In this document: piece by piece, positions 25 to 48,302 of the stretch
Layout of the letters: each line of letters opens with the position of its first letter
Numbering within the stretch: the first letter of the stretch is position 1
Sequence record: DRR723986_9796
Strand: one strand, 5' to 3'
Length of the DNA stretch: 64,000 bases
Translations under genes and position numbers: made by a program
Notes under the pieces: generated by a model
Told to the model about the DNA's origin: nothing
What the model saw: the letters and a program-made list of their open reading frames with translations, nothing else
The model's database searches: none

Positions 25-2109
25 CTAGAACCGAGGTGGCGGAAGCCGACGGTTGCGACGTTCGGCATCTAAATCGGCCAATGCAATATCCACGGCACCT
101 GGCGAGAACACTGGCGGAGCAGCTCGACGATCGGTATCTTCGCCTTGTCGACTGTTGCGATCGCTGTCTTCGCGAGAGTCGTCTCGTCGGCCAGCGTCAC
201 GATCCATTGATTCGGTCTCCAAGGCAGACGCGAAGAAGACGTTCTGCCCTCTTCCGAAATCAACATCTGAATTGCGTTCAATGACATCAGCCAAACTCGT
301 ACGTTGAATGTCGCGCAGTTCCCGGCCTTCGAAGATATTCTCGAAGTAGAAGCGATCGCCGTCTCGTAGGGCAGTGAACTGTTCCGCGATGACCGTTGAT
401 GCTGTAACCCCCAACGCACTTCCTGGAGCGTGCTCTTCGGCCAACATTCCAACCCAGGCGTCGATCGAATCCACATCGCCATACGCCTGCTCAAGCCGCT
501 CGATCACATCGACGTCTGACGTGATCTCGCTGAAATCACTAACGGCCCCCAAGCCCATCGCTTCGCGGACAGCGTTGTATCCCGGCAGTCCGTGGTCTCG
601 GCCACGCTGGATGTTGAGTGCTGCCAAATCGAAACCTCCCGAACCTGGAGGACCGAATAAGAAGTTGCGAACATCATCAACCAAGAATGGATCCACCTCC
701 TGAGCAGCTTGCACCGATGCACCTCGCAGCAATTCCGATATACCATCATCAGTGACAGCACCAACGTTGAAAAAAGCGTTCTGCAGCGGCAGGTTGCCCT
801 CTTCAATGACCTCACCGTTTTCGTCTAAACGCAGCAGCTCTGGCGAGAGCATCGTGTGGCCGAAACGATAGGCAGCAGTCGAGAAAACGTTGGATAGATT
901 CGGATTCACGCTGGGATCGTATCCGCGATAATCCGCGATTGCATTCTCACCAAGCAGTGCCGGAAGGAATTCGTTGTAGGTGATGGATTGCAGTTGTGCC
1001 GTTACGATTCGGCGTGCGCTCTGGAATAATTCCTCATCAGATAGATCGGGATTTTCCTGCGAAAGCTCGTCTGCGATTCGGTTGTGCTCGCGGACCCAGA
1101 TAGTGTGCATTGCCGTGAGGGCTGCATTCTCGTTGGCCCGAATGTCACCGGCAAGGAACAGGCTATCACTCGTTCCCCCCGCATTCGACAGCCCGGCAGT
1201 GTTGAACGGGAGCAAGTCTCCATCGCTAGTTAATAGCCTCCCACCTTCAAACGCTCTTAGTGCATCTGCTCGTTCTTGATCACTTCCGTAGATGACAGAA
1301 CCATCAATGAAGGCGCTGATTGTATTCAGTTGTTCTCGAACCCCTTCGCCGGACTCTTCGTAGCCGGACCTTTCAAAGCCGATCGTTTGCTCTCCACTGC
1401 CGGTCGGATCAAACTCGGGGTCACCTGCGGGAACATCGATATCGAAGGATTCACTATGCCCTTCACCCGACAGCGTGATATCGTGGTCGATGAATTGTCC
1501 CCAGATCCAAGTTAGATCACTGAGGCCGCGTTCATTCTCGATGTCTCCAGGCGAGTCGTTGACGATGTTGCTGACCTCCCGTGCGCTGACGCGGTCCTGC
1601 CCCGCTGGGCTCGCTACACCATCTTCATAGTCAGCGTCGGCCCAGCGTTCGAACGTCTGCCCAGCGCTTCCGAGATCAGGATTCTCTAAGTTGTTGCCGC
1701 TACCATCCAGAGTTGGTACTTCATCCTGCAGAGTTGGGTCTGGTTGCGGTCTAGGTTCTCTTTCCGGCCGTTCGCCTCGACGCTCAGCGTCAAACCTCCG
1801 GTTAATTCCATTGACAACCATTAGCGCATCAACTGGACTGAGGATTCCATCGTTATTCACATCGTGAAAGCCGCGTCGTTCAGAGCGATCAGCGCTGCGC
1901 TCGGCTTCGCTTCGGTTCAATTCATTGATTAACACCAGCGCGTCCGATGGACTCACCTCAGCGTCATCGTTGACATCCAGTGGCTCGAGCGAATTGTGAA
2001 AATGCCCTATGTCGCCAGCCAAGAGCTCACGGCGCTCTAGGTTCTCCAGTTTGATTGAACGCGTGCGGCGGCGATTGGCCCTAGACTTCTTAGACTTTCG
2101 ACGAGACAT
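25..2109 (-). CDS. Animal-type heme peroxidase (peroxidase-cyclooxygenase family) with planctomycete extracellular signal and dockerin-like repeats
   Basis: N-terminal basic stretch + LENLERRELLA; DVNDDAEVSPSDALVLIN / DVNNDGILSPVDALMVVN repeats; peroxidase motifs WGQFIDHD, GDIRANE, AYRFGH, NIQRGRDHG. Confidence 0.92.
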   Translation of the reverse strand: MSRRKSKKSRANRRRTRSIKLENLERRELLAGDIGHFHNSLEPLDVNDDAEVSPSDALVLINELNRSEAERSADRSERRGFHDVNNDGILSPVDALMVVNGINRRFDAERRGERPEREPRPQPDPTLQDEVPTLDGSGNNLENPDLGSAGQTFERWADADYEDGVASPAGQDRVSAREVSNIVNDSPGDIENERGLSDLTWIWGQFIDHDITLSGEGHSESFDIDVPAGDPEFDPTGSGEQTIGFERSGYEESGEGVREQLNTISAFIDGSVIYGSDQERADALRAFEGGRLLTSDGDLLPFNTAGLSNAGGTSDSLFLAGDIRANENAALTAMHTIWVREHNRIADELSQENPDLSDEELFQSARRIVTAQLQSITYNEFLPALLGENAIADYRGYDPSVNPNLSNVFSTAAYRFGHTMLSPELLRLDENGEVIEEGNLPLQNAFFNVGAVTDDGISELLRGASVQAAQEVDPFLVDDVRNFLFGPPGSGGFDLAALNIQRGRDHGLPGYNAVREAMGLGAVSDFSEITSDVDVIERLEQAYGDVDSIDAWVGMLAEEHAPGSALGVTASTVIAEQFTALRDGDRFYFENIFEGRELRDIQRTSLADVIERNSDVDFGRGQNVFFASALETESMDRDAGRRDDSREDSDRNSRQGEDTDRRAAPPVFSPGAVDIALADLDAERRNRRLPPPRF

Positions 2110-20017: not shown

Positions 20018-20293
20018 CTATGACTGTCGCTTTCGAATCTGCTCTCGCAGTTGGTCCACACGCTCGTGCAGCTCCGCGGTTGACCTCTCTTCAAGGACAC
20101 TTTCGTCGCTGAGCGACTCACCCATCAAATCCTCCAACATTCGCACGGTCGAGACCATCGCGGCTCTGTGCCCCTCTTCGCGGCCTTTCTCTAGGCCTTC
20201 TAACCTTGCCGCCATCATATTGGCTTGTTGATCGCGCTGGAATTTCAGCCGAGCTTCGTAGTAATGGCGTTCTTGCGGGGTGCGTGAAATCAT
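20018..20293 (-). CDS. Putative in-frame internal small protein (RpnS-like, 91 aa)
   Basis: AGGAG (20306-20302), 8-nt spacer, in-frame ATG 20293 at the start of the C-terminal domain. Confidence 0.5.
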   Translation of the reverse strand: MISRTPQERHYYEARLKFQRDQQANMMAARLEGLEKGREEGHRAAMVSTVRMLEDLMGESLSDESVLEERSTAELHERVDQLREQIRKRQS

Positions 20294-20923
20294 TTCTAAA
20301 ACTCCTACGGCCTCTCGGAAAGCAGGACCAGGCAACCGATCATGCAACTCTCCGACGTCCAGGTGTTCAGCGTGTTGAAGGAAATACAACCACTTCTCGA
20401 CCGGCAACAAACTCTCGGTTTCGACATTATCGCAAACCTCAGCGAACTTTTCCAATTCAAGGGTATGAAACTCGAGAGCATCAGAGAAAACAAGATCAGC
20501 TTGATCGCATCTCAACCGAAAACTCAAATGGTAGCCAGGAATCTGCGGAAACAATTTACGTGACAAGACGCAAATGCTAATGGAGGGCCGAAGAGCAAGA
20601 TAAGCATCCCCTTCGCTGATCTGACGCGCGAGATTCAAACTACCGTAGTACGTCAATCGCTGGGGTAAATCCAGAGGAATGGTGGTCTGCATTTCTATGT
20701 TGAAACAACGACCAGAACTATCGGTTGCCAACACGTCAAGCACCACCAGCTTGTCATCCGATCGATCTTTCCCCTGAATCGGATTCAGGATCTCCACATC
20801 TACAATCGGCTCCGGCAGACTTAAGACGGAATTCAAGAAGTGAATGGTCACCGATGTATGGTCGGGACTACCAAACACTAACTTAAATGCAAAATCAACC
20901 TTTGGATCAATCCCAAGCGGCAT
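20018..20923 (-). CDS. Rpn family recombination-promoting nuclease / PD-(D/E)xK putative transposase
   Basis: PKVDFAFKLVFG, LDVLA...NIEMQ, RL.YY, EFHTLEL.KF, KWLYFL, EGLEKGREEG tail. Confidence 0.93.
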   Translation of the reverse strand: MPLGIDPKVDFAFKLVFGSPDHTSVTIHFLNSVLSLPEPIVDVEILNPIQGKDRSDDKLVVLDVLATDSSGRCFNIEMQTTIPLDLPQRLTYYGSLNLARQISEGDAYLALRPSISICVLSRKLFPQIPGYHLSFRLRCDQADLVFSDALEFHTLELEKFAEVCDNVETESLLPVEKWLYFLQHAEHLDVGELHDRLPGPAFREAVGVLEMISRTPQERHYYEARLKFQRDQQANMMAARLEGLEKGREEGHRAAMVSTVRMLEDLMGESLSDESVLEERSTAELHERVDQLREQIRKRQS

Positions 20924-20928
20924 CTGAA

Positions 20929-22635
20929 TCACTCATCAATAAACAGACTCATACGACGAATGCGGCGAATCGTGGAAAGCAGTGTCATGCAGATTACGCC
21001 GAGCCCGACCACAAAGATCGTCGCAAAGTCCTTCTTAACAAAGTCCTGCATTGGTGCAAAGACCGCAAGGAGGATGAATCCGGCGATGCATACACCCGTC
21101 GTAAACAGAACGAATCGCGCTCGGTAGAACAGACTGCTCGCGACAACCATCATCGGGTAGCCGATCAGCAACATTGACCGGGGTTCGTCGGCAAAGGCAA
21201 GCAGGCTGGTATAAATGGTGACATCAACCGTTGCCCAGGTCAGACAGGCGAGATCGCGCCAGCGAGCTTTAATGACCCACAACTGGAGAAAGTAGCTGGC
21301 TGCGATCCAAGAAAACAGCAACACCATGCGAACAGGAAACTCGCGAGTCGGCTCGGCACCTCGCCAATAATGCCAGCCAGCGACGATGGCCGTTGTCAGT
21401 CCAATTCCGCACAGGTGCACGACCAAGATCGGCTCCCGCCGCCACCACGAATGGAGTCGCCCCGCCAACGTTGGAAGTGGACAATCCAGCGGCTGACCAC
21501 GTAGTAGTTTCTTCAGATCCTGCGCCAGCGCCTCAGCACTTGAGTACCGCAGCTTTGGAGCCTTATGAAGCGCTCGTTGGCACACAAAATCAAGTTCATG
21601 CGACACTCCGCGGCGCACCTTACTCGGCGGCGGGGGCTCACGATCAAGAACTTGCATCAACACATCAAAAGGAGTTGGACCAGTAAACGGAGGTTGGCCA
21701 GCACAAAGAAAATACAGAATCGCACCGAGTGAGTAGACATCCGAACACGGCGTTGGCTGGGTCGCGTGACCGCTGGCGTGCTCAGGGGCCATGTAGGCCG
21801 GAGTTCCCAAGATCTGGCCTGTGGCCGTCAGACCGGCGTCTTGGTTGACAATCTTTGCCAGCCCAAAATCGATTAAGATTGGCTGACCCTGCTTATCAAT
21901 GAGAACATTGGCGGGTTTGATGTCACGATGCAAAACGCCCGCTTTATGGGCATGCGTGACTGCCGCACATAGCTGAACCACAATTCGAGCAGCATCCATC
22001 GGGTCCATCAGTTCATCACATGTGGCTTGCGCCAAACTGACCCCATCGATGTAAGCCATTGTGTAATAGACCAACCGGTCAATTACGCCAACTTCGTAGA
22101 TAGGAACAATGCCGGGATGAGTTAACGCGGCAGCAGCCTCTGCCTCGCTGCGAAACCGTTGCACTTCGTCATCGCTAGCCAGTTCACCTGATCGAATAAC
22201 CTTTAGCGCTACAGTACGCCCAAGCTCTTGGTGCCTGGCTTTGTATACGACGCCCATGCCGCCGCGGTCGATCTCCTCCAAAATTTCATACGCGCCAAAG
22301 TAACGCGGAGGCGATGAACCAATACTCGATGCCTGCGCCGGACCAATCCCGGCATGTGTCATCGAACCGTCACCTTCGGCGGTGTCACAAACCTGTTGCT
22401 GACTCGGCGGCGCATGATCGGAAGCACTTTGGCTTGGGGCCGAATTACCGCTGTCTTTAATACTATCGCCTGCAGCGGAGAACTGCTCATGCATATGCAT
22501 GAAATCGAGAAGCGCTTGACGATGCTCTGCGTGCCTGGCAAGAAACTCTTCACGGTCAATACCGCGTCCGCTTTCAGCACGCTCCATAAATTCAGCTAGA
22601 GCCGCATCGAGACTCTTCGGCGTTTCCATGTTCAT
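20929..22635 (-). CDS. Hanks-type Ser/Thr protein kinase with C-terminal multi-pass membrane domain
   Basis: RGGMGVV, VALK, HRDIKPAN, DFGLA, GTPAYMAPE, DVYSLG; several C-terminal TM helices. Confidence 0.95.
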   Translation of the reverse strand: MNMETPKSLDAALAEFMERAESGRGIDREEFLARHAEHRQALLDFMHMHEQFSAAGDSIKDSGNSAPSQSASDHAPPSQQQVCDTAEGDGSMTHAGIGPAQASSIGSSPPRYFGAYEILEEIDRGGMGVVYKARHQELGRTVALKVIRSGELASDDEVQRFRSEAEAAAALTHPGIVPIYEVGVIDRLVYYTMAYIDGVSLAQATCDELMDPMDAARIVVQLCAAVTHAHKAGVLHRDIKPANVLIDKQGQPILIDFGLAKIVNQDAGLTATGQILGTPAYMAPEHASGHATQPTPCSDVYSLGAILYFLCAGQPPFTGPTPFDVLMQVLDREPPPPSKVRRGVSHELDFVCQRALHKAPKLRYSSAEALAQDLKKLLRGQPLDCPLPTLAGRLHSWWRREPILVVHLCGIGLTTAIVAGWHYWRGAEPTREFPVRMVLLFSWIAASYFLQLWVIKARWRDLACLTWATVDVTIYTSLLAFADEPRSMLLIGYPMMVVASSLFYRARFVLFTTGVCIAGFILLAVFAPMQDFVKKDFATIFVVGLGVICMTLLSTIRRIRRMSLFIDE

Positions 22636-24165: not shown

Positions 24166-25294
24166 CTAAGAATTCGCGTCCTTGACCGCCTGGTTCTGGC
24201 CCATACGCCACACCAAGAAAGAATCTAGAAAACCTTGGATATCACCGTCCATGACAGCTTGAAAGCTACCTTGGTAATGCTCGGTGCGAGCATCCTTCAC
24301 ACGCTGATCCGGGTGCAGGAAGTAGTTTCGAATCTGTGATCCGAATCCTTTCTGACGTACCTTGTTCTGGTACTTGGCTGCCTGCTCCTCTTCGCGGCGT
24401 TCTTCCTCGATGCGAGCGATCCTGGCTCGCAACATCTTCCAAGCCTGCGCGCGATTCTTATGCTGACTTCGCTCGCTTTGACACTGGGCAACCTCACCGG
24501 TGGGCAAGTGCGTCAACCTGACGGCACTGTCAGTCTTATTGACATGCTGCCCGCCAGCGCCGCTGGCGCGATATGTATCCTCGCGGACATCTTTCTCATC
24601 GATCTCGACATCCACACTGTCACTGATTTCAGGCGACACATCGACGGCGGCGAAACTAGTCTGCCTTTTCCCATCAGCATTAAAAGGACTGATTCGCACC
24701 AACCGGTGGATGCCCTCTTCACCCTTCAGGTAGCCGTAGGCCATCGGGCCGCGGATGGCAACTGTTGCTTGAGTGATTCCCGCTTCTTCGTTGTCTTGTC
24801 GGTCGAGCAGTTCAGCGCTCATGTCATGCTTGGTTGCCCAAGCGATGTACATCTTAAGCAGCATCTCGGCCCAGTCATTGGCGTCAACGCCACCATCCCT
24901 GGCATGCACGCTTAGCAGCGCGCCAGCAGAATCATGCGGACCGTCCAGCATCGCTTGCAGCTCGAGCTCTTCGACTTGTTTTTCCAGTCGAGAGATTTCA
25001 CTGACGACTTCAGCCCGCGCAGATTCGTCCTCATCTAAGAAGGCGATCAAATCGGCCAAGTCACCCGACGCGTCGAGCGATTCTTGCAGCGGGCCAACGA
25101 CACTTCGAAGCCCCTTCAGCTCAGCAACGGTTGCCTGCGCAGTTTCTTGATTGTTCCAAAAGCCCTCGGCAGCCATTTGTTCTTCGATGGCTGCGACTTG
25201 TCGCGTTTTGCTATCGAAGTCAAAGACTGTCCCGGAGCTGTGTCAGGCGGCTTCGAATCGCTTCCGCGCGATCCGACAGTTCGCTGTCACTCAT
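24166..25294 (-). CDS. prfB: Peptide chain release factor 2 (programmed +1 frameshift, about 375 aa)
   Basis: SPF and GGQ motifs; upstream frame MSDSELSDRAEAIRSRLTQLRDSL ends in CTT TGA C and continues +1 as DFDSKTRQVAAIEEQ into the 336-aa ORF. Confidence 0.97.
25219..25225 (-). other. prfB programmed ribosomal frameshift site CTTTGAC
   Basis: Canonical CUU UGA C at codon 24. Confidence 0.95.
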
Positions 25295-36604: not shown

Positions 36605-38635
36605 ATGCATCCTCAATCGCCCAAACGACTTGACGACTTTCTCGAAACGAGCCTGCCTGATCTGCTAAGTTCAGAATGTGGCGCTCGATGGTCTGAGAAT
36701 TGGGTTGGGCAGCAGTTGGACGTCTATCGCATCGAGGATCTGCTCGGTACCGGCACCCATGGTGTCGTCTTTCGCGCGCGACGAACGACACCTTATGAGC
36801 AGATCGTTGCCATCAAACTGCTACCGAACCTTCGAGGCCAAGCAAATGCGGCGCAGTTTCAAAACGAATGCCAAGCGTTGGCCGACTTAGAGCATCGCAA
36901 TATTTGTCAAATTCTCAACGCAGGACTCACGGAAGATGGTACACCCTATCTGGTGATGCCGCTGCTCAGTGGCATAACCATTGATCGCTATGTGGACGAC
37001 GCCAATGTCGACGACTTTCAAATCGCGAGATTGGTCAAGCAGGTAGCCGAAGCAGTTGCTTTTGCTCATGAGAGAGGAGTCGTCCACTGCGATCTGAAAC
37101 CGGACAACATTGTGGTTGATAAAGATGGCCATGTTACCGTGACGGATTTCGGCTTGGCCGTACGAATCAACCAAATAGACGATCTTGTTGAACAGCCGTC
37201 TTGGGGGCCCGGCACGATCGGCTATGCGGCACCGGAAATTCTCTGGTGTCGAAAGGACGCATCGCACGCCATGGACGTTTACTCTTTGGGTGCGATTCTT
37301 CACCGCCTACTGACAGGGAAGGCTCCGCATGAGACGTCAGATTGGTTGGAATCACTCGTTTCCCTTGCAGGTAGCGTGTCGCCTCCCGTGCAGACACTTC
37401 GGCCAGAGATCCCCGAACACCTAGCTGCTGTCTGCGATCAATGTCTCGCACCAGTGCCCAGCCAACGTATCCGATCTGCGGAACAGGTTAAGAAACTGCT
37501 CGAGCAGTGGATCAGTTCCAATCCGCCAAGCAGCTCAGGACAACGTGAACACACATCACTGCGCCCGTTTCGCTTTGGCGTACTTGCCAGTGTGGGCCTT
37601 GCTATCACCCTGGCTGTTGTTTATTCAATCCGTCATAGCTCTTACTCGAATTCACCCGGTCGCGAGCAACCTAGAACTGCGGTTTCCAATGAGTTTACCA
37701 GCGAGGAGATTGAACTTGCATTAAAGCGGATCGAAGAAGAATGGCTGCAGCCTGGACTTCAACATCCATCGCAGCCTGGCGATTTCGCTGAGGCATTTGC
37801 GAAACTACAGCGAGCAACCCGAGAGCTCGACATCCTGTTGGCCAGCGCACCAGAGAGCAAGACGGTACGGCACCGAACCGCCACCGCGTACTTCTTGCTC
37901 GGACGAGCCGCACACTGGGTGCACGAAGATGAACGGGCGAGGAACAGTTTAGCTTATGCCGAATGGCTCTTTCGCGAACTGCATCGCGAATACCCGCAGG
38001 ATGGATTCATGTTCGATTTCTTTCACACGATCTACGCGCAGACTTCTGCGGCTCCGTCACGTCAACAGCGAGATCTGTATCTGATGATGCTTGGGATCAT
38101 CGAAGGATTGCACGAAGCACATCCTATGAATCTCGACTACTCCGATGCACTGGCCTGCACGCTCGTGAGTCTTGGATTTAGCTACGCGGATGAAGTAAAT
38201 TCTAACCTTAGAAATGTTGAGAAGGCTGGTGACTATGCTCAACGCGGACTGGAAATGGCCGAGTGGACCTGCGATCAAGCAGCAAGTCGAACAATCCATC
38301 GTAAACAGATCATGCAAGCGTTGATGGTAAAGAGCATTGTCGCGCGGCTGCAGAACGAACATCAGCAGTCAATGCAGTTTGCGAAGGTCGCGTATGCAGA
38401 GGCGATTCGCTTGGATGATGCCATGCGAATTGCGGATACCAAACAACATCGCTTCCGAAAAGCGCTACGGCTCGCAATCGCTTATCAAGAACTTGGCAGA
38501 ATCGACGACGCGCGTGAATTGCTCACGGAATTGGAGAGACTCCTTACAATACTGAGCGAACTTGGGTGGCCAAGGTATCATGTGCTTGAGCAAGACCTAT
38601 CGGAATTCAAGCAATCCTTGCCTCCTCTGTCGTGA
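36605..38635 (+). CDS. Ser/Thr protein kinase with TM helix and TPR-like C-terminus
   Basis: LGTGTHGVV, VAIK, HCDLKPDN, DFGLA, GTIGYAAPE, DVYSLG. Confidence 0.93.
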   Translation: MHPQSPKRLDDFLETSLPDLLSSECGARWSENWVGQQLDVYRIEDLLGTGTHGVVFRARRTTPYEQIVAIKLLPNLRGQANAAQFQNECQALADLEHRNICQILNAGLTEDGTPYLVMPLLSGITIDRYVDDANVDDFQIARLVKQVAEAVAFAHERGVVHCDLKPDNIVVDKDGHVTVTDFGLAVRINQIDDLVEQPSWGPGTIGYAAPEILWCRKDASHAMDVYSLGAILHRLLTGKAPHETSDWLESLVSLAGSVSPPVQTLRPEIPEHLAAVCDQCLAPVPSQRIRSAEQVKKLLEQWISSNPPSSSGQREHTSLRPFRFGVLASVGLAITLAVVYSIRHSSYSNSPGREQPRTAVSNEFTSEEIELALKRIEEEWLQPGLQHPSQPGDFAEAFAKLQRATRELDILLASAPESKTVRHRTATAYFLLGRAAHWVHEDERARNSLAYAEWLFRELHREYPQDGFMFDFFHTIYAQTSAAPSRQQRDLYLMMLGIIEGLHEAHPMNLDYSDALACTLVSLGFSYADEVNSNLRNVEKAGDYAQRGLEMAEWTCDQAASRTIHRKQIMQALMVKSIVARLQNEHQQSMQFAKVAYAEAIRLDDAMRIADTKQHRFRKALRLAIAYQELGRIDDARELLTELERLLTILSELGWPRYHVLEQDLSEFKQSLPPLS

Positions 38636-38739
38636 TTGGCCGAAAAGTTACCTTTGACATCTTTTGGCACTTCATTGGTGCATTATGGATCATGCTGTCA
38701 GCTTGTTCCCGGGTCTTGTAGTGCCCTCTGGCAGGCTAC

Positions 38740-39687
38740 TCACTGCGGATCTTCTCGAGCTGGCTCAGGAGCGTGGACCCAGAATTTCACTTCTGGCTTC
38801 CGTTCCCGGAGAAAGTTCTCTTGCGATTCCGTCAAATGACAAAAGTGCAATTCAAGTCGCTTTACGTTCGGCAGGACGGATAGCTCCGAAATGGCATCGT
38901 CATCGAAACGGCAATAGTAAAAACTGAGTGTGTCAATATTTGCAAGCACTCTGATCTTGTCGCTAAGTGAAGTCTCGGGCTTTTCACCCTGAAGCTGGAC
39001 AAACTTTAGCTTAGGGCACTGCTGTAGTGCGGACAGGTCGTCGCCGGACAGATGCCCCATGGAAAATAACCGTAAGGTTGCTAGCGAACCGCATTGAGCT
39101 AAATTCTGAATGCCTTCGCCACTCACGTTCGGGAGCGACTGAAGTAGAACTTCGGAAAGATCTGGCAGTGAGGCTACGTGAGCGATTCCTTGGTCGGTGA
39201 TGTCGGGAAGCGCTGTGTAATAACGGCCGATGTGGACTCTCGTAAGAGTGTCGACGGTGGCAATCGTTGCAAGGTCACCGTCGCTGAGTCCTTTGAATGC
39301 GATCGCTAGCTTTCCCAGTCGCTGCAGCGTCGCAATCTTTGCGATGTCTTTCGAGTTGAATTCATCCTTATCCATTCGAGAAGCCGTAACAAACAGGTCT
39401 CCCTCGGGCAGTTCGTCGGAGGACTTGACGTTGACACGTTGGCCGTCCTTCAGGACGCCAACGCTGCCGCCGAGGTTCAAGATACGTAACGCTACTTCAC
39501 GTTCGGTGAGCTCTGGCGGTTGGGGTTCGGCTTCCGGAACGGATGGCGAAACCAGCGGCTCTTCGGGAGAACTGACCAGCGGAGCATTCGGTGGTGCTGG
39601 ATCAGGCGATCGTTCACTGCACCCTGGAAGGGTGGCCAGCGTGGTTGCGAGGGAAATTACTGCCCAGGTAGCTCGCATCTTTGTCAT
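38740..39687 (-). CDS. Leucine-rich repeat lipoprotein
   Basis: Lipobox LPGC, Pro-rich linker, LRR units (ITDQGIAHVASLPDLSEVLL); frame stays open upstream through repeat copy A1. Confidence 0.8.
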   Translation of the reverse strand: MTKMRATWAVISLATTLATLPGCSERSPDPAPPNAPLVSSPEEPLVSPSVPEAEPQPPELTEREVALRILNLGGSVGVLKDGQRVNVKSSDELPEGDLFVTASRMDKDEFNSKDIAKIATLQRLGKLAIAFKGLSDGDLATIATVDTLTRVHIGRYYTALPDITDQGIAHVASLPDLSEVLLQSLPNVSGEGIQNLAQCGSLATLRLFSMGHLSGDDLSALQQCPKLKFVQLQGEKPETSLSDKIRVLANIDTLSFYYCRFDDDAISELSVLPNVKRLELHFCHLTESQENFLRERKPEVKFWVHAPEPAREDPQ

Positions 39688-39726
39688 ATCCTTAAATGTT
39701 TCTGTCTGACATCTAAAGGATCCGCC

Positions 39727-39784
39727 CGAACGCACACTTGAACGTGTGGACAGGACCCAGCTAAACGAATCATCAGCGCGCTCA
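39727..39784. repeat. 58-bp direct repeat, copy A1 (intergenic)
   Basis: 51/58 identical to 40346-40403; first 26 bp identical (CGAACGCACACTTGAACGTGTGGACA). Confidence 0.95.
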
Positions 39785-39787
39785 TTG

Positions 39788-42700
39788 TTAGGCGGGCGGC
39801 TGCTCCGGGCCTTGAAGTTCTTTCGCTAGTTCTTGGTAGCGTTCCAAGCCCTCACCTTGCAGTTCAATGACTCTGCGAAGGTTTTCTGCACGCGAGGCAT
39901 CGTCTCGAGGTTGAAGCTCTGCTGCCTTGATAACGCAGGCTGCGAAAAGATACTTAAACTCTGGGAACTGATAGGCTTTGCGAACTAGTTCAGCAGAAGC
40001 AGCAGCCGGATCAGTTTTCCAACCGGCACAAGTCTTTAAGACCCAGTCATTCATAAATGACTTCTTGAAGATGATATCGATCTGTTCGTATGCTGCTCTC
40101 TCATCTCCGACTTGAAAGTAAGAGTGTCGTAGCTTGCTGTGTGTCCGCCAGCCAACCTTATCAGGATTCTTACCGATTATGTCCTTAAGGTACTCGATCT
40201 TTTCCTCGTCCGAGAACGAGTCAAAATCGTCCGAAAGCGCATCGTAATCAACCTTAGCTTGTTTATCTGAGGGGACCCTTTGTGGTGTTGGAACTGGGGC
40301 AATGGCGTAAGCGGGCGTTTGCTTGATTGGTCCCTTGTCGAGCATCGAACGCACACTTGAACGTGTGGACAAAACCCAACTACCTGAATCATCAGCGTGC
40401 TCACTCTTGAAGCTCTCATCGAAATCATCCACGGGGCGTTCCCATTCCAACATAGCACCCGCCAGGATTGTCTCTTTGGCTTCGGCTGCCTTGCCAGCTT
40501 GATGCTGATAGTAGGCAAGTTCATAGAAATGTTCTGCCCACAGCGGTTTGACGATTGGAAGACCGAACAGCGCAGCTTTGGCTTGTTCGACTTCGCCTGC
40601 TTTTAAGAGCGCACCGAATTGACTCAGCTTTTCCCGCATTGCTGCCTCTGTATAAACAGGCGACGGAGCTTCTTGAGGGATAAATTGCGCCACGACAGCG
40701 TAGCTTTTGATGTTTCTCGTAACCATTTCGGGAACGAGACTCTGTTCTGGCTGCAGTTCGAGGAATGAGCCGTAACGACTGGCGTAAGCTAGAAAAATCA
40801 ACGGATGTATTCGTTGGCCGGTTGCTCGAAAGCAGCGGAGAGATGTCCAAACGCCACCCGCCTGAAACTGTGTAGCCATCGCGGAAGGCGGCTCCTTGAA
40901 GCGTTCCTGCTGGACTGGAACCATTACGGAGTAAGTTTGCTGAATGCTCTCCTGGTAAGGCACTTGCACCGTGTATTGCACCGTATCTGTTTGTGGTTGA
41001 CCATCGACAGTTTTTGTCACATCACGTGTTCGCGTTTCCATTCTGTATTTGGTCACCACATACTCCCTAGTCCTAGTCTCTGTCGTGTAGACTACCATCG
41101 AGGAGATGTAGTTTGGCTTTTCAGATCCCAGCGTTTTGAGCTGCAGATTGTCATGCGGCTTGAATGGCAGTTTGTTTCCAAGACCTTCCGCCTCTTCAAA
41201 CGCTCGTGTTTGCATGCTTGAGTAAGTTTTGCCATCCGAGTGCTTCCAAGTGAACTGTTCGATGCCCACCACAATCGCATTTGGATTCAGTTGATTGGCC
41301 CAGTTGGCATCGCCAGTTCCGCCGGGTAACACGAACACATACTGTTCCTCGCTCAGCAACTCTCTCGCCTGATCAGCCAACACCTGTTCGCCATTGCCGC
41401 GATACACTTTGACGCGTTCAATGGGAAAACGACTGACGAGTTCTCTGTTGGGATGATTCCAAACCGGTACGCCGTCTACTTCTTGGAGTTCGGGAATTGC
41501 AGCCTCAAAGCACATGAGGAACTCGTCATCAACCATTCGGCCCACCGTTGCGAATGGATTGGAGCCCAAGGAATTCAGCAGCCAATCATCCCGCAAAGCT
41601 GGAGGGCACGTCTTAGGTGCTAATTCCGCAGTTTGTGCGTTTGAAGTAGATGCACCGTCTGCGGTCAGCTTGCTGGTCACCTTCCCAAAGGTCTTCAGCA
41701 TTTCGCGGATTTGATCGATTTCTTCGCGTCGGTCGAAATCGGGTCCGTTATAGAAACTGATTTTGCCGGTTCTTGGGTCCAAGACAGCGATCCGTTTTGC
41801 ATCACTCGACATGCCGATCAGTTGTGTACCAGCTTCCTCGAATGGCAGGCTGATTTGCTTTTCAGTGCCCGTCGTTGGGACCGCTTGCAGTCCCGTTTGA
41901 TCGTGGAAGACGATATGGCGATTGTTACCTGCAAAGCGATAACCGTAGAACATTCCGGTAGACAGCGTTCCCTGATGGAGCACCTTTTGGAACTTGCCCG
42001 TGTCGGTGTTCCAGACGCCTATGGCTGTTGTGGTTGCCACATCGGATTGATGACTTAGCACGGCTGTGAGCAGCGGTCTGCCTGGGATTTTCTGCCATTT
42101 GAACGGTGCTGAGGCAAGGCGTGAGTTAGCATACGGTTGCGCCTCTAACTCGATGACCTTTTCGCCTGTCAGACTATCAAAGATGACCGGGACTAGAACT
42201 ATGTAGTCGTTTCCGAGCATATTTTTGCGACTCTCCGTGCGACCTAGCAAATGTGTGCCGGCATCATTTGCGAATATCAAATCGCTGGGATCACTTTTGA
42301 AGGCTTTGCTAGGACCGAGGCGGTCTCCGCTGGCGACATCCCAGACATGAGTTTTGGTGTTAGTCGCCCCCAGCAGCTTCGAGCCGTCAATGGAAAACTC
42401 CAGCTTGATGATTGGCTGTCGATTCTGATCTTTTAGGTCCGATTCCCACTTAAGCGTGCCATCCGTCGCGTCAAAGACTTTGACCGAACCCCCCGTCCCA
42501 ATGGAACAAGCAACCAGTGCATCGTCACGAGAAATCGCGATGCTCGATGCTCGGTTAGCATCGAGATCAAGTGTTGCACCCGAATCAATGTTGACGACCT
42601 GCGGTGCAGGCGAAGTATTGGGCACATAAGCGAACAAATTTCCCGAGCTGGACAGCGCCGTCTGGAAGGCTCCACCTTGAGCTACCTCGACACTTAGGTC

Positions 42701-42820
42701 GAGCTTCTCGAGTTTTGGCAACTCATCAGCGGACAACTTGCCGGGCAATAGAGCCACAGAGCCTGTAAGAAGGCAGAACCACACGAGCCGAGCGTAGTTG
42801 TAATTCAGCAAACGATTCAT
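39788..42820 (-). CDS. Secreted multidomain protein: WD40-like propeller, YTV-type segment, helical C-terminus
   Basis: Signal peptide from ATG 42820 (track ORF 42892); blades AISRDD, VKVFDA, FSIDGS, VWDV; ETRTREY...ETRTR...YTVQVPY...TYSVMVP. Confidence 0.8.
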   Translation of the reverse strand: MNRLLNYNYARLVWFCLLTGSVALLPGKLSADELPKLEKLDLSVEVAQGGAFQTALSSSGNLFAYVPNTSPAPQVVNIDSGATLDLDANRASSIAISRDDALVACSIGTGGSVKVFDATDGTLKWESDLKDQNRQPIIKLEFSIDGSKLLGATNTKTHVWDVASGDRLGPSKAFKSDPSDLIFANDAGTHLLGRTESRKNMLGNDYIVLVPVIFDSLTGEKVIELEAQPYANSRLASAPFKWQKIPGRPLLTAVLSHQSDVATTTAIGVWNTDTGKFQKVLHQGTLSTGMFYGYRFAGNNRHIVFHDQTGLQAVPTTGTEKQISLPFEEAGTQLIGMSSDAKRIAVLDPRTGKISFYNGPDFDRREEIDQIREMLKTFGKVTSKLTADGASTSNAQTAELAPKTCPPALRDDWLLNSLGSNPFATVGRMVDDEFLMCFEAAIPELQEVDGVPVWNHPNRELVSRFPIERVKVYRGNGEQVLADQARELLSEEQYVFVLPGGTGDANWANQLNPNAIVVGIEQFTWKHSDGKTYSSMQTRAFEEAEGLGNKLPFKPHDNLQLKTLGSEKPNYISSMVVYTTETRTREYVVTKYRMETRTRDVTKTVDGQPQTDTVQYTVQVPYQESIQQTYSVMVPVQQERFKEPPSAMATQFQAGGVWTSLRCFRATGQRIHPLIFLAYASRYGSFLELQPEQSLVPEMVTRNIKSYAVVAQFIPQEAPSPVYTEAAMREKLSQFGALLKAGEVEQAKAALFGLPIVKPLWAEHFYELAYYQHQAGKAAEAKETILAGAMLEWERPVDDFDESFKSEHADDSGSWVLSTRSSVRSMLDKGPIKQTPAYAIAPVPTPQRVPSDKQAKVDYDALSDDFDSFSDEEKIEYLKDIIGKNPDKVGWRTHSKLRHSYFQVGDERAAYEQIDIIFKKSFMNDWVLKTCAGWKTDPAAASAELVRKAYQFPEFKYLFAACVIKAAELQPRDDASRAENLRRVIELQGEGLERYQELAKELQGPEQPPA
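40346..40403. repeat. 58-bp direct repeat, copy A2 (intragenic)
   Basis: Encodes EHADDSGSWVLSTRSSVRS of the WD40/YTV protein. Confidence 0.95.
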
Positions 42821-43355
42821 TTGAGGATCTATTCCAAAGTTGATTTTGTGGGATTGCCTCGGACATGTTGTTGAAGAAATCGGCTCAAACATTCATTTCA
42901 AGACATACGACATCTGTGCCTATAAAGCCGAAGGAAGCTGCTTTCGATACGCCTTCTCGGAACCTGGCAGGTTACCGAATCTATGACGCTTCAATAGTCA
43001 ACTCGTTAACCGCGCAGAAACCCCCTGGCTAATTCTCTAGCTTTTTCTAATTCGATCGACTGAGCATCATGTATCGCAACGGCAAGCTGTCCGATCTGAG
43101 CATGAAGAGAACTACCTACGGTTCGCAATTTGCTAAATGAAACGGGGCATGCGGGCGGCTTCCGCAGCATTTTCTGGTACGGATCTCACGCCGCGTCGAA
43201 GTCGTGAATGAGCCCTGCCGTTGCGATCGTGCTTTTCTTCAGCAGCAGCTAGTCCTGGTCACTTTTCTATGCAAGATGCCGCGTCCGAGATACTTCACTG
43301 CGCACGGGCAGCGTAGAACTTGTGAGGCTTGGCTTCGCGCGGACGCGGGCATGGT

Positions 43356-43376
43356 GGGTTACTTCACTTGGACGTC
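43356..43376. repeat. 21-bp perfect direct repeat, copy B1
   Basis: GGGTTACTTCACTTGGACGTC, identical to 45030-45050. Confidence 0.93.
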
Positions 43377-43509
43377 GAAGCCGCGGGGGATGAGCATGCT
43401 TATGCCCAACTGTTAGCCGGGTACGCTGACTGGCTTTTATGACATCCAATACCGAACGCGTGTTGGATCAGCGCTTCCGGTCAAACGGCCATCGGTCGAG
43501 TAGACCACA

Positions 43510-44961
43510 TCAACTATCAGTGTCGGTGGTTATGTGATCACCCATGGGAGCGTGCTGCCTCTTGGGTGGAAAAAGCGTTCGATCAATCCACTCGTTTCTG
43601 AAACGCCCTTTCGGGTCCAGATCATTCAAGATATCACGAAATTCTGAGAGCCGAGGATATAGGCGCTCGACACTTTCAGAGTCTACAGGACAGACTTTGC
43701 CCCAATGCGGCCTTGCGCCGAAGAGCACAGCAGTTGAGCGTGCCAAGAAACTGGCGAAACCATAGAAACCGTCTCGGTTGTTCGGGCCATGGTAGCTGAT
43801 GAAGCTGACTGCGTAGTAGGACTCATCGCCGCCGCTCGACGTAGAAATGAGGGTCGTGTCAGGTAACACTTTGCGAATGCAAATCGGATAGTGATGCGTG
43901 TAGGTGCCGGCCAACGACTCCAAGTCCTCAAACAGTTCTGGGTTATCAAGATTGCTCAAAACCTGCATGTCAGTCGCAGACGGCCTTCCATCACAAAAAC
44001 ACAAGAGGCTGCGAACGAATTCTAGGAGTCTCTCAAGGTTCGAGTGCTTCACGAACAGCTCGATCTCGATGTGTTTGAACAACTCGTGCTTCATTGTCAG
44101 CAATCGCTGCGACTTATCGACTACCTTCCAGTTGCGGAAGATGGTCCACGGTACAACGAACCGATAGAAGAAACGAATTAAACTCTTCGCCCTTATCACT
44201 CGTGTGAGCAACAGAAGAATAGCATGCAGGCCAACGTCAACGACTAAGAACCAGTAGATTTGATAGAGCATCGAAGATTGTGATCGCTGCTTATCCGATA
44301 CACGTCGATGTTGGGCCATCAGATCCCAACTGTGCGGCAACAAGAAAAACTGCTGCAACGGATACTCTTTCTCGGATTCCAAGACGGTTGGTAAACTATC
44401 GAAGAATTGGAAGTGCTCTTGAATGTTGTATTGCACCTGACACACCATCTTCACGGCGATGATTACACCGACACACCCTACTGAGCACTGAGCCGCTGAT
44501 AATTCAGCCCCCTCGCTTATCGTCTTGATTACAGGCTCATCTGTATCTGGATCATACGTAGCGACGGTAACCTCTTCCACAAAATGCGATATGCATTGCT
44601 TTCCTGAACCGTGAGTGCCTGTAGAGATTGCACCCGCAACGGTTTGTTCTGCAATGAGTCCCTGTGTGGGGAGAGCTAGACCGACAGCATCCAAGGCACC
44701 GATCAGTTGCTTGATCTGACAGCCCGCACCAACGACCACAGATCGCTGAGATTCGTCGACTTCGACCTGATCAAGATGTGCGAGATTGATCAAAACATCT
44801 TCGGACTTCTGCACTTCACTCCAAGAATGTAGGCGACCAATCGTACGGATTCGGCTAGTTCGATTAAACCGCAGAATCTCGAGAACATCGTCGGCGCACT
44901 TAGGTTCGAAGTACGCTGACGGTTCAAAGGACACATTCCTTCCGAAGTTCGTGACTCTCAT
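43510..44961 (-). CDS. FAD-binding oxidoreductase, D-arabinono-1,4-lactone/L-gulonolactone oxidase family
   Basis: GRLHSWS, QTVAGAISTGTHG, C-terminal ARPHWGK and DPKGRFRN; ATG 44961. Confidence 0.9.
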   Translation of the reverse strand: MRVTNFGRNVSFEPSAYFEPKCADDVLEILRFNRTSRIRTIGRLHSWSEVQKSEDVLINLAHLDQVEVDESQRSVVVGAGCQIKQLIGALDAVGLALPTQGLIAEQTVAGAISTGTHGSGKQCISHFVEEVTVATYDPDTDEPVIKTISEGAELSAAQCSVGCVGVIIAVKMVCQVQYNIQEHFQFFDSLPTVLESEKEYPLQQFFLLPHSWDLMAQHRRVSDKQRSQSSMLYQIYWFLVVDVGLHAILLLLTRVIRAKSLIRFFYRFVVPWTIFRNWKVVDKSQRLLTMKHELFKHIEIELFVKHSNLERLLEFVRSLLCFCDGRPSATDMQVLSNLDNPELFEDLESLAGTYTHHYPICIRKVLPDTTLISTSSGGDESYYAVSFISYHGPNNRDGFYGFASFLARSTAVLFGARPHWGKVCPVDSESVERLYPRLSEFRDILNDLDPKGRFRNEWIDRTLFPPKRQHAPMGDHITTDTDS

Positions 44962-45029
44962 AATTGGCGTATCCAAGCGCACTGGTGTGTGTGCTAAATG
45001 GGGTGGTGGAAAGGGTCAGTCAGGCCGAA

Positions 45030-45050
45030 GGGTTACTTCACTTGGACGTC
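45030..45050. repeat. 21-bp perfect direct repeat, copy B2 (covers last codons and stop of the 473-aa gene)
   Basis: Minus strand GAC GTC CAA GTG AAG TAA CCC. Confidence 0.93.
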
Positions 45051-46454
45051 ATAGCGCTGTTTCAGGCGACCGTACTTGTTCTCTGCTACGAGCCATAGTT
45101 GAGTTCGTCCGCCGTCTTGGAGCATGTGTGATGGTATGACGGTTCGCCCGGTGTGACGGTCCTGCTCGGAAAAGAAATGGTTGTACCGCGCCAGTGGATG
45201 AGACGGATTGGAGACGTGGATCATGATCGCGTCGGCGTTGTGGGCTTCGAATGCCAGCTCCAAATCAGCGCCGCGAGCGACCCTTTCTGGTACTCCCTTG
45301 AGCTTTAAATCACAGACAGAAAACTCACAGGCCAGGCTTTTCGAACCATCGGCGAGAATGCAGTAAGCCGTGTAGTTGCCACACTTCTCGAAGACTCGTT
45401 TCACCACTTCACCAGCGGCCGCCGAAATCTGCTCCACCAGTTGTCCATTTCTCCTGATCACGAGTTGCTGAATTCCCCGCCGATCGCGATCCATAATGTG
45501 AATGCGAACGGGCTGATCGACTTTGTAGGCAACCCAGTCCCCAAGGTCCAGCAACAGCGTTCGGTTGATCTCTGGGGTCGCGGAATCCTCCTCAAAGTTT
45601 GGAAACCGAAACGACTCGAATCGATTCTCACGAAGCCACTGGTCCATGTTCGTGATTCGCAACAACTGTCGATTCTGCAGGCCAAGATGCTTATCAAACT
45701 CCTGAGCCGAATAGTCGGTCGAACGAGTCGTGGGCGGGCGACTTTCTTCAACTCGAACATGTGAAACCTCGCCTGAGGGATCACGAATCACGTCGGTCAC
45801 GATTTCGATATGGGCAGCTCGCCCAGGCGGACGAAAGATCAGATCACCGATTCGCACGACCTGAGAATTCGGTGAATCGATCCGTTCAACTCCATCGCGA
45901 TGATCCGGCCCGTGCCGACGACTCACCAACCAGTTGCCGCACCCGAGAGCGTAGCTGGTATATGTGGAACAAACCTTGCCGTAGAAGCACTCCGCATTGT
46001 TCAGATGAGGCTTCAGGCTTTCGGTGTAAAGCACACTCTTCGGATTCTGGACGGCAGCCAGAAATGTCTTCAGGTAAATATCGAACCCAATATCACGCCC
46101 TCGTTCTTTGACACTTGAATAAGGAACTCCAGTGTATGTTTCCCCCTTTAAAAAAACGCCGCCGTTGTAGGGCATGCCGTCTGCGACCGGTGTCCATTGC
46201 ACCTGCGACATCAACCGAGCTCGGCGGGCAACCTCTTTTTGCCAGGAAGTCGGGTCTTCCTGCTGGCCCTCTGTGGACGGCAAATCACCGCGTTGACCGA
46301 GTGGACTAAATGGAGCCGAACCGCCGCCCGGAGTCGTCCCGTGATCCGGGCTCCTTTGTAGATCAGGGCTCCGTTGTAGCTGCGGATGAGCCACCGCAGA
46401 ATTCAAGACAAGTGTGGTCAACAGAATTCCGAAGACGCAATGGGTCAAATGCAC
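45033..46454 (-). CDS. Secreted protein with probable NlpC/P60-CHAP-like Cys/His domain and Ig-like C-terminus
   Basis: Signal peptide; GVPYS...G.VCSTYTSYAL...IGDLIF......HIEIV...VEES. Confidence 0.6.
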   Translation of the reverse strand: MHLTHCVFGILLTTLVLNSAVAHPQLQRSPDLQRSPDHGTTPGGGSAPFSPLGQRGDLPSTEGQQEDPTSWQKEVARRARLMSQVQWTPVADGMPYNGGVFLKGETYTGVPYSSVKERGRDIGFDIYLKTFLAAVQNPKSVLYTESLKPHLNNAECFYGKVCSTYTSYALGCGNWLVSRRHGPDHRDGVERIDSPNSQVVRIGDLIFRPPGRAAHIEIVTDVIRDPSGEVSHVRVEESRPPTTRSTDYSAQEFDKHLGLQNRQLLRITNMDQWLRENRFESFRFPNFEEDSATPEINRTLLLDLGDWVAYKVDQPVRIHIMDRDRRGIQQLVIRRNGQLVEQISAAAGEVVKRVFEKCGNYTAYCILADGSKSLACEFSVCDLKLKGVPERVARGADLELAFEAHNADAIMIHVSNPSHPLARYNHFFSEQDRHTGRTVIPSHMLQDGGRTQLWLVAENKYGRLKQRYDVQVK

Positions 46455-46568
46455 GACAAACTCCGGTGTTTATATCAATTACTAGCCAATGACCGTACCA
46501 ACCACGTTCCCGTGGCGCGACTAAAGGCTCCCATCAGCAACGAAGATGCTCAAGGCTGATGTACTTAA

Positions 46569-48302
46569 CTAGCGGTTCACTCTCTGGAGAATCCAGTCGG
46601 TCATGAGCTGGAGGGAAGAGGGGTCAAAGGTTTCTTCAATCTGGCTGTATTCGTCCATTAATCCGGTCGAAGCTTGCTGGAAAAGGTGGTTCAAACCAGG
46701 AAGCTCAACCGTCTCAAAGTCGTCCGTCGGTGCAGCCTCTAGTGCGCTCTCGATTGCGGGCAAATTCAATTTGGCGTCAACCTGCAAGTCCTTTGAGCCG
46801 TTGATTGCCAAGACCGAGCACTTGAGCTTCTCTAGACTCTCCGTCGGTTCGTATCGCATAAAGTACTCAAACCACGGTGAACGCAATTGTGTGGCGGCGG
46901 TTTGCACCGCGGCGGCAATCTCTTGAGGTTTCAACGAGTCTTCCGTGCTGCTTCGGATCAGGTCAATCGCCTGAGCTGCGAAGTCTCTGTCACTGAGTCG
47001 CGGTTCTGCTTTGGCTAAGCCGATCAGGCCTTGCTGGATGGCAGACTCCCTTTCAACGTCGCTCTCCTCCATACCACTGGCCCGCATGATCAAAGCCGCT
47101 TGGCTGACCAAGATTTTCTCACCGTTAACGCCAGGCCCCGCCATCAGAACAATGAAAGGAATCGAATCATCCTTGGCAGCCACCATCGGTGCAATCAACC
47201 CTCCTTCACTGTGGCCCACGATACCCACGTTCTCAGCATCGATCCCCTCGTGGCCTTGCAAGAATTTCACTGCACAGTGCGCATCGTTTGCAAGATCAAC
47301 GCTTGTTGCCGAGGCAAAATCCCCGGTTGACTTTGCAGTTCCGCGATCATCGTAACGAAGCACCGCGATTCCGCGACGGGAGAAGTAATCAGCGATCACC
47401 CAGAACGGCTTGTGGCCGGCAATGGATTCGTCACGATCTTGCGGCCCCGAACCAGATACCAATACCACCGCGGGTCGCTTGGCGGCGGCCGCATCAGCGT
47501 TGGGAATCGTCAACGTTCCCGACAGCGTCACTCCAGCAGTCTCGTTTTCAATGCTGACTTCGACAATCTCGTACGGAAACGGACCCTTCGGTGTTTGAGG
47601 TCGCTTTGGAGTCTCCGTCTTGGCAATCACCGCCTGATTGTCCGCTTGCCGAGTCAGTTTCAACGAGGGCGAAAAGAGGCCTTGTTTCCAAGTCCCATTC
47701 ATTTCATTACCGTCATCACTCAACTCACCAGTGAACGAAGCCTTGAGCGCGGGAACGTCGAGCGTGACCGTTGCACCTTCAACCGTCTTTTCCGCAACGA
47801 ACCCACCAATCTTCTGAGTCAGACTATCCAGATAGACCACTCCGGATTCTAGCTCGCGAATCTGAATATCAACTTTCTGAACCAAAACGTTGATTGTGCC
47901 CGACCAAACAGCCCGTAGCTCTTCCTTGGGCAGCTCGTCAACTCGATCAAACACAAGCTCAAACTCTTGGCCACTTTGTCGCCACTTTCCGACCATACTG
48001 CCATCGACGGCTTGCGCTGAATAGTCTGCCTTAGTTTGAGGCAACGAAAACACGAGCGCTGAATCATCCACTTCCACATTGGAAAGCTCGAATTCCTGTG
48101 CACCTTCGTCCAAACTGATTAATGTCCCACTCCCAGCATCTGTAGGTGTCAGCTTTAGGGCAAATCGAAAATGACGGCCCGGCGTCTCCATCTTGCCGTA
48201 CCAAAGCTGCTGATCGGCGGCCACCGAAGCTTCGATTTGTGCAAAAGCCATTGATTGCAATAGCAACAGGCTGACAAGCGATAGTAGTCCTTTGATTTTC
48301 AT
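46569..48302 (-). CDS. Secreted alpha/beta hydrolase (serine peptidase/esterase-like)
   Basis: RPQTP..P.PY, SGSGPQDRDE, RYDDRG, GHSEGG, KDLQV, LNHLFQ. Confidence 0.92.
   Translation of the reverse strand: MKIKGLLSLVSLLLLQSMAFAQIEASVAADQQLWYGKMETPGRHFRFALKLTPTDAGSGTLISLDEGAQEFELSNVEVDDSALVFSLPQTKADYSAQAVDGSMVGKWRQSGQEFELVFDRVDELPKEELRAVWSGTINVLVQKVDIQIRELESGVVYLDSLTQKIGGFVAEKTVEGATVTLDVPALKASFTGELSDDGNEMNGTWKQGLFSPSLKLTRQADNQAVIAKTETPKRPQTPKGPFPYEIVEVSIENETAGVTLSGTLTIPNADAAAAKRPAVVLVSGSGPQDRDESIAGHKPFWVIADYFSRRGIAVLRYDDRGTAKSTGDFASATSVDLANDAHCAVKFLQGHEGIDAENVGIVGHSEGGLIAPMVAAKDDSIPFIVLMAGPGVNGEKILVSQAALIMRASGMEESDVERESAIQQGLIGLAKAEPRLSDRDFAAQAIDLIRSSTEDSLKPQEIAAAVQTAATQLRSPWFEYFMRYEPTESLEKLKCSVLAINGSKDLQVDAKLNLPAIESALEAAPTDDFETVELPGLNHLFQQASTGLMDEYSQIEETFDPSSLQLMTDWILQRVNR

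Follow-up and report, generated by a model that had tools for sequence, protein, structure and literature searches.

Two neighbouring pairs of direct repeats lie in a 64,000-nucleotide (nt) stretch of DNA from sequence record DRR723986_9796 (the window, whose positions serve as coordinates throughout), which to judge from its genes is a chromosome piece of planctomycete and, more narrowly, Pirellulales type. Each pair, here called A and B, has one copy in a secreted-protein gene and a second copy downstream, and the two pairs share an 11-nt core. Our favoured explanation, to which we give about an even chance, is that the pairs are footprints of separate insertion or rearrangement events in a strain-variable Pirellulales-type stretch, pair B marking a real single-gene islet without a recombinase. 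The shared 11-mer is most likely coincidental. The 1674-nt unit of pair B is a presence/absence polymorphism among strains, a variable islet with no recombinase of its own, while the DNA between the copies of pair A reads, in alignment with its homologues, as the old tail of a gene and a domain fused to it, with no cargo.

Pairs A and B are the only direct repeats in the window with exact runs beyond chance (26 and 21 nt); a whole-window search found no other with an exact run above about 15 nt among the 20 of 23 repeat families listed. The copies of pair A match over 63 nt at 86% without gaps, and a local alignment gives 51 of 58 identical positions with the final 26 nt exact. Those of pair B match exactly over 21 nt, or over 26 nt at 92%. 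Copy spacing is 619 nt in pair A and 1674 nt in pair B. By arithmetic, a sequence of 64 kb should contain about 5e-4 direct pairs that match exactly over 21 nt. The core, CACTTGRACGT, occurs four times in the window, always on the plus strand and once per repeat copy (0.10 expected from shuffled sequence; 0 of 100 shuffles reach four), although these amount to only two independent occurrences because each pair is a repeat. The first-pass annotation had reported the two pairs, the four core copies in one orientation, their placement in genes (A2, B2) and downstream of them (A1, B1), and both spacings; the repeat search and motif count bear all of this out. Further core copies, which it had put forward as a sign of cassette boundaries elsewhere, did not turn up: the 64 kb holds none beyond the four. 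Allowing one mismatch adds two matches, at 20355–20365 (minus strand) and 36713–36723 (plus strand), and the resulting count of six against 2.46 expected is at chance level, being reached by 7 of 100 shuffles.

The case for an islet rests on pair B (Table 1). The 473-aa secreted protein upstream belongs to a family of 615 proteins at E ≤ 0.001 among 8000 candidates scored, the best of them, from Pirellulales, at 56% identity. A conserved C-terminal region, GENxYGRLKxRxD[IV]QVxD, ends 119 of the 120 family members listed, the exception being a 647-aa protein, and B2 is therefore a genuine gene end. The copies bracket a single gene, an FAD-linked lactone oxidase with an alternative GTG start at 44982, and B1 lies 133 nt past its stop codon. 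The best homologues of the oxidase are 61% identical Pirellulales proteins, and its G+C content at third codon positions (0.56) falls within the window range of 0.53–0.63. By homology and composition, this cargo looks native to Pirellulales.

For the strain comparison, contigs from four public runs (X1–X4) were aligned to window positions 38700–46500; the data are assembled contigs, from which rare variants get dropped. One X1 contig (5534 nt; four aligned pieces, 86–96% identical) bridges 43263 to 45030 with 97 other letters between, and an X3 contig shows the same joint, again without the oxidase gene. In both contigs, the oxidase-less allele breaks on the right at the base with which B2 starts (45030). 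The oxidase-to-B2 junction of the window, in turn, recurs in an X2 contig (804 nt, 44401–45204) and in another X1 contig (290 nt, 44769–45058). Because contigs of both kinds were found, both alleles exist in nature and the junction in the window is no assembly artefact. X1 depth is low across the oxidase gene, and we did not use this as evidence of absence.

Empty sites with a single repeat copy in related strains had been named in the first-pass annotation as something to look for. The X1 and X3 contigs lack the oxidase unit and break on the right at 45030, and the left break lies 92 nt from B1. At that end, after 43263, the 97 letters of the contigs cannot be aligned; the window has 92 nt up to B1 in their place. 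These letters may be a diverged version of the 92 nt, which is plausible because the same X1 contig carries two other hyper-diverged patches, or they may be unrelated to them. A clean single-copy empty site is no more than compatible with the data. Between B1 and the breakpoint in relatives, 43291–43310 contains a 9-nt exact partial match to the pair-B block (TACTTCACT), which is at chance level. Upstream of B1, extended homology to the gene tail, compared by hand, amounts to 8/15 to 8/18 nt with a gap and is not significant.

An exact 21-nt repeat with copies 1.67 kb apart is beyond chance, and was therefore made by an insertion event. In such an event, a 1.65-kb piece with the oxidase gene would have entered directly behind the conserved secreted-protein gene, duplicating the last 18 nt of that gene and the 3 nt that follow, so that the upstream gene would stay intact and an orphan copy of its tail would sit beyond the insert. 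Either the incoming DNA recombined via the 21-nt tail match, with an enzyme acting in trans, or the target was duplicated in an illegitimate or replicative insertion. The first route would have joined circular or linear DNA through the gene-tail match, with the enzyme encoded elsewhere or with short-homology recombination in its place, as in small integrase-less islands.

Pair A calls for a separate account. The only full-length homologue found for the 1034-aa open reading frame (ORF) that contains A2 is P0001 (876 aa, 54% identity), which is colinear with it through A2 and 27 residues past, and then ends. A2 is the ancestral copy, since P0001 is colinear across it. An exhaustive, profile-free search with residues 829–1034 returned 122 relatives of the last ~155 residues, 74 of them no longer than 260 aa. 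The best, P0242, is a 192-aa stand-alone lipoprotein with its own signal peptide, 80% identical from residue 871 (aligned over about 871–1024); the lipoprotein-family domain is also C-terminal in the Ser/Thr kinases P0247 and P0250. On these alignments, the 1034-aa ORF is best read as a beta-propeller/YTV-type secreted protein (residues 1–876) fused to a lipoprotein minus its signal peptide, the YTV repeat being a borderline match (20.9 bits against a gathering score of 21). The fusion junction falls near nt 40264, 80 nt from A2, and there is no other domain boundary between the A copies. P0001 sits on a 3201-nt contig and may be cut; its end is within 6 residues of the start of the P0242 alignment.

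The stretch from A2 to the stop codon is also present in a 92–96% identical relative, whose X1 contig spans 39813–40979 with 47 differences and 4 gaps. With at least its first 27 residues present in P0001 and the whole of it in this relative, the 619-nt unit is old gene sequence and no module, and A1 is secondary. The first-pass annotation had taken the DNA between the copies of each pair for a cassette module; that proposal survives in part for pair B, whose unit is polymorphic with a breakpoint at B2, and falls away for pair A, whose unit is a conserved gene tail. No contig from X1–X4 skips the 619 nt between A2 and A1, a result that is uninformative on excision, rare variants being dropped from contigs. 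Were the DNA between A2 and A1 deleted, the large ORF would continue in frame into the ORF of the neighbouring leucine-rich-repeat (LRR) lipoprotein; the chance of such an outcome is about 0.18, and we do not rely on it.

A1 begins at or 3 nt past the stop codon of the 1034-aa ORF and 37 nt upstream of the LRR start codon. It lies at the edge of a second strain-variable segment. To the left of 39813, the X1 and X3 contigs are unlike the window, and contigs from the other side diverge at 38907 or 38954. Translated by hand, the 30 loose contig letters left of 39813 give a different last eight residues, ...LAKELQGLEHSPTK, and then a stop. X1 has no cover over 38961–39482, which was likewise not used as evidence of absence. 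An X2 contig (39690–39961) covers A1 with both flanks as in the window. In a 187-nt X4 contig of low depth, 39650 is followed directly by 39727, without shared letters, and the 76 nt at 39651–39726, which hold the LRR start codon and the first 13 codons, are absent; on its right side, this joint starts exactly where A1 does. Either a natural deletion allele or a sequencing chimera could explain it.

Within the large ORF itself, the X1 contig is too diverged to align over 40979–41094 (114 nt, same length), and at 42072–42299 it has 232 letters in place of 226 nt. These patches suggest mosaic recombination or diversifying selection in a surface protein.

For pair A, the favoured explanation supposes that a 58-nt copy of an internal coding piece was placed right behind the stop codon of the fused gene, at the junction with the variable LRR segment. 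A1 would then have arisen at a rearrangement junction, as a patch copied from a template or as what is left of a partial (tandem) duplication. Integration by tail copying is rejected here, because the ancestral gene that it needs is contradicted by P0001, and a templated patch or partial-duplication remnant fits pair A better.

Table 1. Repeat copies, genes and strain-variable segments at the locus, in window positions
Feature	Position	Strand	Description	Source
LRR lipoprotein gene	38740–39690	−		ORF and domain search
Strain-variable segment 1	5′ two-thirds of LRR gene, 76 nt upstream and A1			X1, X3 contigs
Pair A downstream copy (A1)	39727–39789	−	non-coding	
1034-aa ORF	39788–42892	−	apparent fusion	ORF and domain search
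Pair A upstream copy (A2)	40346–40408	−	codes residues 829–849 of the 1034-aa ORF	
Strain-variable segment 2	43264–45029		1766 nt; holds oxidase gene and B1	X1, X3 contigs
Pair B orphan copy (B1)	43356–43376	−	non-coding, 21 nt exact	
FAD-linked sugar-1,4-lactone oxidase or dehydrogenase	43510–44961	−	ALO and FAD_binding_4 domains	domain search
Pair B gene-end copy (B2)	45030–45050	−	last 5 codons (DVQVK), stop codon and 3 nt of the 473-aa gene	
Secreted 473-aa protein	45033–46454	−	no Pfam match	ORF and family search
Alpha/beta hydrolase	46569–48302	−		ORF and domain search

Several observations weigh against separate events with a coincidental core. The cores of the two pairs lie on one strand and agree at 10 of 11 bases. 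With the four copies set aside, the window has 31 forward and 44 reverse 11-mers that match some 11-mer of A1 at 10/11 or better. By arithmetic from these counts, the probability that a random 21-mer has a core of this kind in common with A1 is about 0.5% if only the same strand counts and 1.3% if either does, in keeping with the roughly 1% estimated in the first-pass annotation. The core alone thus has a chance of about 0.5%. A detail absent from the first-pass annotation is that the core and the downstream end of the exact block, in the coding sense, are 8 nt apart in pair A and 9 nt apart in pair B; core and offset together (the latter ~3 in 53) come to about 0.03%, a value computed post hoc. 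At 45030 (X1, X3) and 39727 (X4), breakpoints between strains coincide exactly with the ends of repeats. A1 differs from A2 at 7 of 58 positions, all seven within the first 32 nt (78% identical) and four of them synonymous in the A2 frame, and the 26-nt block with the core, at the left end on the plus strand, is unchanged; such clustering has a chance of (32/58)^7 = 0.016. With its block of identity and diverged flank, A1 looks like an attachment site, and a templated patch leaves the 12–14% divergence and its pattern unexplained. For pair B, an exact target duplication of 21 nt exceeds the usual footprint of end joining or transposition.

These points would be accommodated by one trans-encoded recombinase with ACGTYCAAGTG as its recognition sequence, which would move small modules into and out of sites behind secreted-protein genes; pairs A and B would each be a pair of its attachment sites. 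We consider this reading unlikely. In its favour are the core common to both pairs in one orientation at an 8–9-nt offset, the break of the oxidase-less allele at the first base of B2, the X4 joint at the first base of A1, and the composition of A1 as identity block plus diverged flank. The H47 genomic island offers a precedent for trans-acting functions working on imperfect direct repeats (PMC3191183). Against it, the pair-A unit is the gene's own tail plus a fused domain, present in the 92–96% identical relative and, for at least its first 27 residues, in P0001, and A2 is not the site of the fusion. Of the pair-B breakpoints, the right one is at a repeat but the left one lies 92 nt from B1. 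Read from the sequence, the core has no dyad symmetry, the flanks have no hairpins, and neither a further core copy nor a recombinase is present in the 64 kb. The exact 21-mer of pair B and the exact 26-mer of pair A have no match in viral_contigs. A broader form of the idea would be a Pirellulales process, not described before, in which a trans-acting recombinase or nuclease recognises ACGTYCAAGTG, breaks 8–9 nt downstream behind secreted-protein genes, and installs or removes single native-type genes; copies of the gene end would be left behind as its traces, and neither attC hairpins nor inverted repeats nor a linked integrase would be involved. That, too, we think improbable.

A hot spot for sequence-directed breakage or replication stalling is, in our view, slightly less likely still. 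Here, a nuclease or a small CACAC/GTGTG hairpin would cause breaks 8–9 nt from the core, and repair, by template switching or end joining, would copy A1 and B1 and capture the oxidase and LRR DNA. The ends of the repeats at a fixed offset from the core, with two strain breakpoints exactly there, agree with this, as do the native-looking cargo without mobile-element features and the size of A1, which is that of a templated patch. The window also contains a gene of the Rpn nuclease family (20018–20932), a family that is reported to be linked to RecA-independent horizontal transfer (PMC5350276). The gene is, however, 19 kb away, and a 2023 paper treats Rpn genes as antiphage defence toxins. The scheme is wholly inferential, draws on two sites only, and has its hairpin in pair A only; A1 is 12–14% diverged from the supposed template, with an identical core block.

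It is distinctly improbable that the repeats are selected cis elements, for protein binding or RNA processing, at the 3′ ends of co-oriented genes, with the oxidase-less allele produced by deletion between them. Three of the four copies are indeed found at the stop codon, or shortly after it, of genes that follow one another on the minus strand, and the 26-nt block of non-coding A1 is unchanged beside a diverged flank. A2, however, is itself coding sequence, neither the LRR gene nor the hydrolase gene is followed by a comparable element, the blocks of the two pairs have only 11 nt in common, there is no Rfam match, and none of six scanned terminator sites is at a repeat copy. That mis-joined strain variants in a metagenome assembly created the 21-mer and 58-mer duplications is barely credible: several strains coexist in the runs and 21 is a common k-mer size, but contigs from other runs carry the same junctions (X2 44401–45204, X1 44769–45058, X2 39690–39961).

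Features of mobile elements were sought across the locus and in a domain scan of the 39 window ORFs of at least 180 aa. None of the 39 has an integrase, resolvase or DDE transposase domain, which upholds the earlier remark that the window holds no integrase or recombinase, and none has a reverse transcriptase domain. Between the ends of the pair-B unit, the best inverted match reaches a score of 14 (7 nt), which is also the median of the shuffles (95th percentile 19), and a transposon or miniature inverted-repeat transposable element with target-site duplication is rejected for lack of terminal inverted repeats. Minus-strand DNA folds at 43330–43520 (z −0.29) and 44960–45080 (z +0.25) are no better than shuffles; an integron or attC array is rejected, with no attC-like fold and no intI in the window. 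A shufflon or invertible cassette, which has inverted recombination sites and an Rci-type recombinase nearby, does not describe the locus: all four copies point the same way, and the window is without a recombinase. The locus has no Rfam match, and the RNA-family reading is rejected on that ground; the terminator scan gave six sites, against a shuffle mean of 8.6, none at the repeat copies.

Among known systems, the H47 genomic island of Escherichia coli, a 13-kb, multi-gene element for which experiments have demonstrated excision and integration (Azpiroz et al. 2011, PMC3191183), is instructive. Its flanking direct repeats are imperfect but contain segments of identity, it encodes neither an integrase nor an excisionase and moves by functions acting in trans, and it is present or absent among strains (PMC3191183). 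The islet described here is also a small strain-variable unit between direct repeats that carries no recombinase, but pair B encloses just one gene in a unit of 1.65 kb, its repeat is 21 nt long, and the contigs show no excision product. An islet mobilised in trans has repeats that flank the unit, one of them at a gene end. Pair B shows this arrangement; pair A brackets no island, its repeats flanking the gene's own sequence.

Integrative elements at gene 3′ ends, such as e14 or phage 21 at icd and the islands that target tRNA genes, substitute the gene end, encode their own tyrosine integrase and span many kilobases. Elements of the e14 and phage 21 type resemble pair B in the duplicated tail and stop codon, the intact upstream gene and the orphan tail beyond the insert; they differ in that no integrase, phage or plasmid gene is present here and the cargo is native-looking. 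Integron cassettes are likewise single-gene units in one orientation and in tandem, with the recombinase outside the unit. The integron core-site consensus is GTTRRRY, which the repeats here do not match; there is neither an attC fold nor an intI in the window, and the repeats are copies of the coding end of a gene.

For pair A, the closest parallels are templated insertions, by microhomology-mediated break-induced replication, fork stalling and template switching (MMBIR/FoSTeS) or short-patch illegitimate recombination, in which the patch is identical to its template when made. A 58-nt patch from a few hundred nt away, at a junction of conserved and novel DNA and without mobile-element features, fits this pattern, whereas the 12% divergence of A1 with an undiverged 26-nt block does not. 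The template and variable repeats of diversity-generating retroelements also come as an imperfect repeat in the 3′ part of a surface gene with a second, non-coding copy downstream, and with an identical block at the 3′ end. Such a retroelement is rejected, because the mismatches (G/A, G/A, T/G, T/G, C/T, C/T, C/T) are not adenine-specific and the window has no reverse transcriptase.

No related locus was found in genome_contigs (queries: the 1034-aa protein and its alignment to P0001) or in metagenome_contigs (queries: the P0001 alignment and the 473-aa protein), where the sole match, L001, holds no relative. The protein database has no homologue more than 61% identical to the 1034-aa, 473-aa or oxidase proteins. 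The literature on planctomycete integrons and on templated insertions in bacteria, in those parts that were accessible, held nothing specific to such a structure.

The wider window agrees with its assignment. The best homologues of three local proteins are from Pirellulales (54–61% identity), an ECF sigma factor of planctomycete type (PF07638) adjoins a Ser/Thr kinase, and housekeeping genes include recJ, prfB and purM. Between 38.7 and 48.3 kb, every gene is on the minus strand. The Rpn-family gene, also on the minus strand, encodes a recombination-promoting nuclease or putative transposase (PF12784, E 3.8e-49; TIGR01784, 107 bits against a cut-off of 52) and is the sole recombination-type gene in the window, 19 kb from the repeats. 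At 25–2109 (minus strand), an animal-type haem peroxidase domain (PF03098, E 1e-165) is fused to dockerin, an unusual pairing for a bacterial secreted enzyme. Upstream of the ORF at 24166–25176, a release factor 2 programmed +1 frameshift site, CTT TGA C, follows a short upstream frame (25216–25225, minus strand); this is a classical, already known feature.

Together, these findings describe insertion scars in a plastic region, with a cassette system partly supported for pair B and not for pair A, and nothing yet shows a common enzyme system that made both pairs. Gene-tail duplications around small islands are of a known kind, and this locus adds a compact and clean example backed by population data. 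Should the shared core prove real, it would suggest that planctomycetes, whose genomes are large and plastic and whose mechanisms of gene gain are poorly known, build variable arrays of surface and secreted genes in a cassette-like way. While this is not yet a new system, the locus documents an islet of one gene, without a recombinase, at the tail of another gene, and both of its alleles occur in natural populations; it also presents a secreted-propeller and lipoprotein-domain fusion beside a putative templated patch. In this context, it serves as a useful case for how accessory genes enter such genomes.

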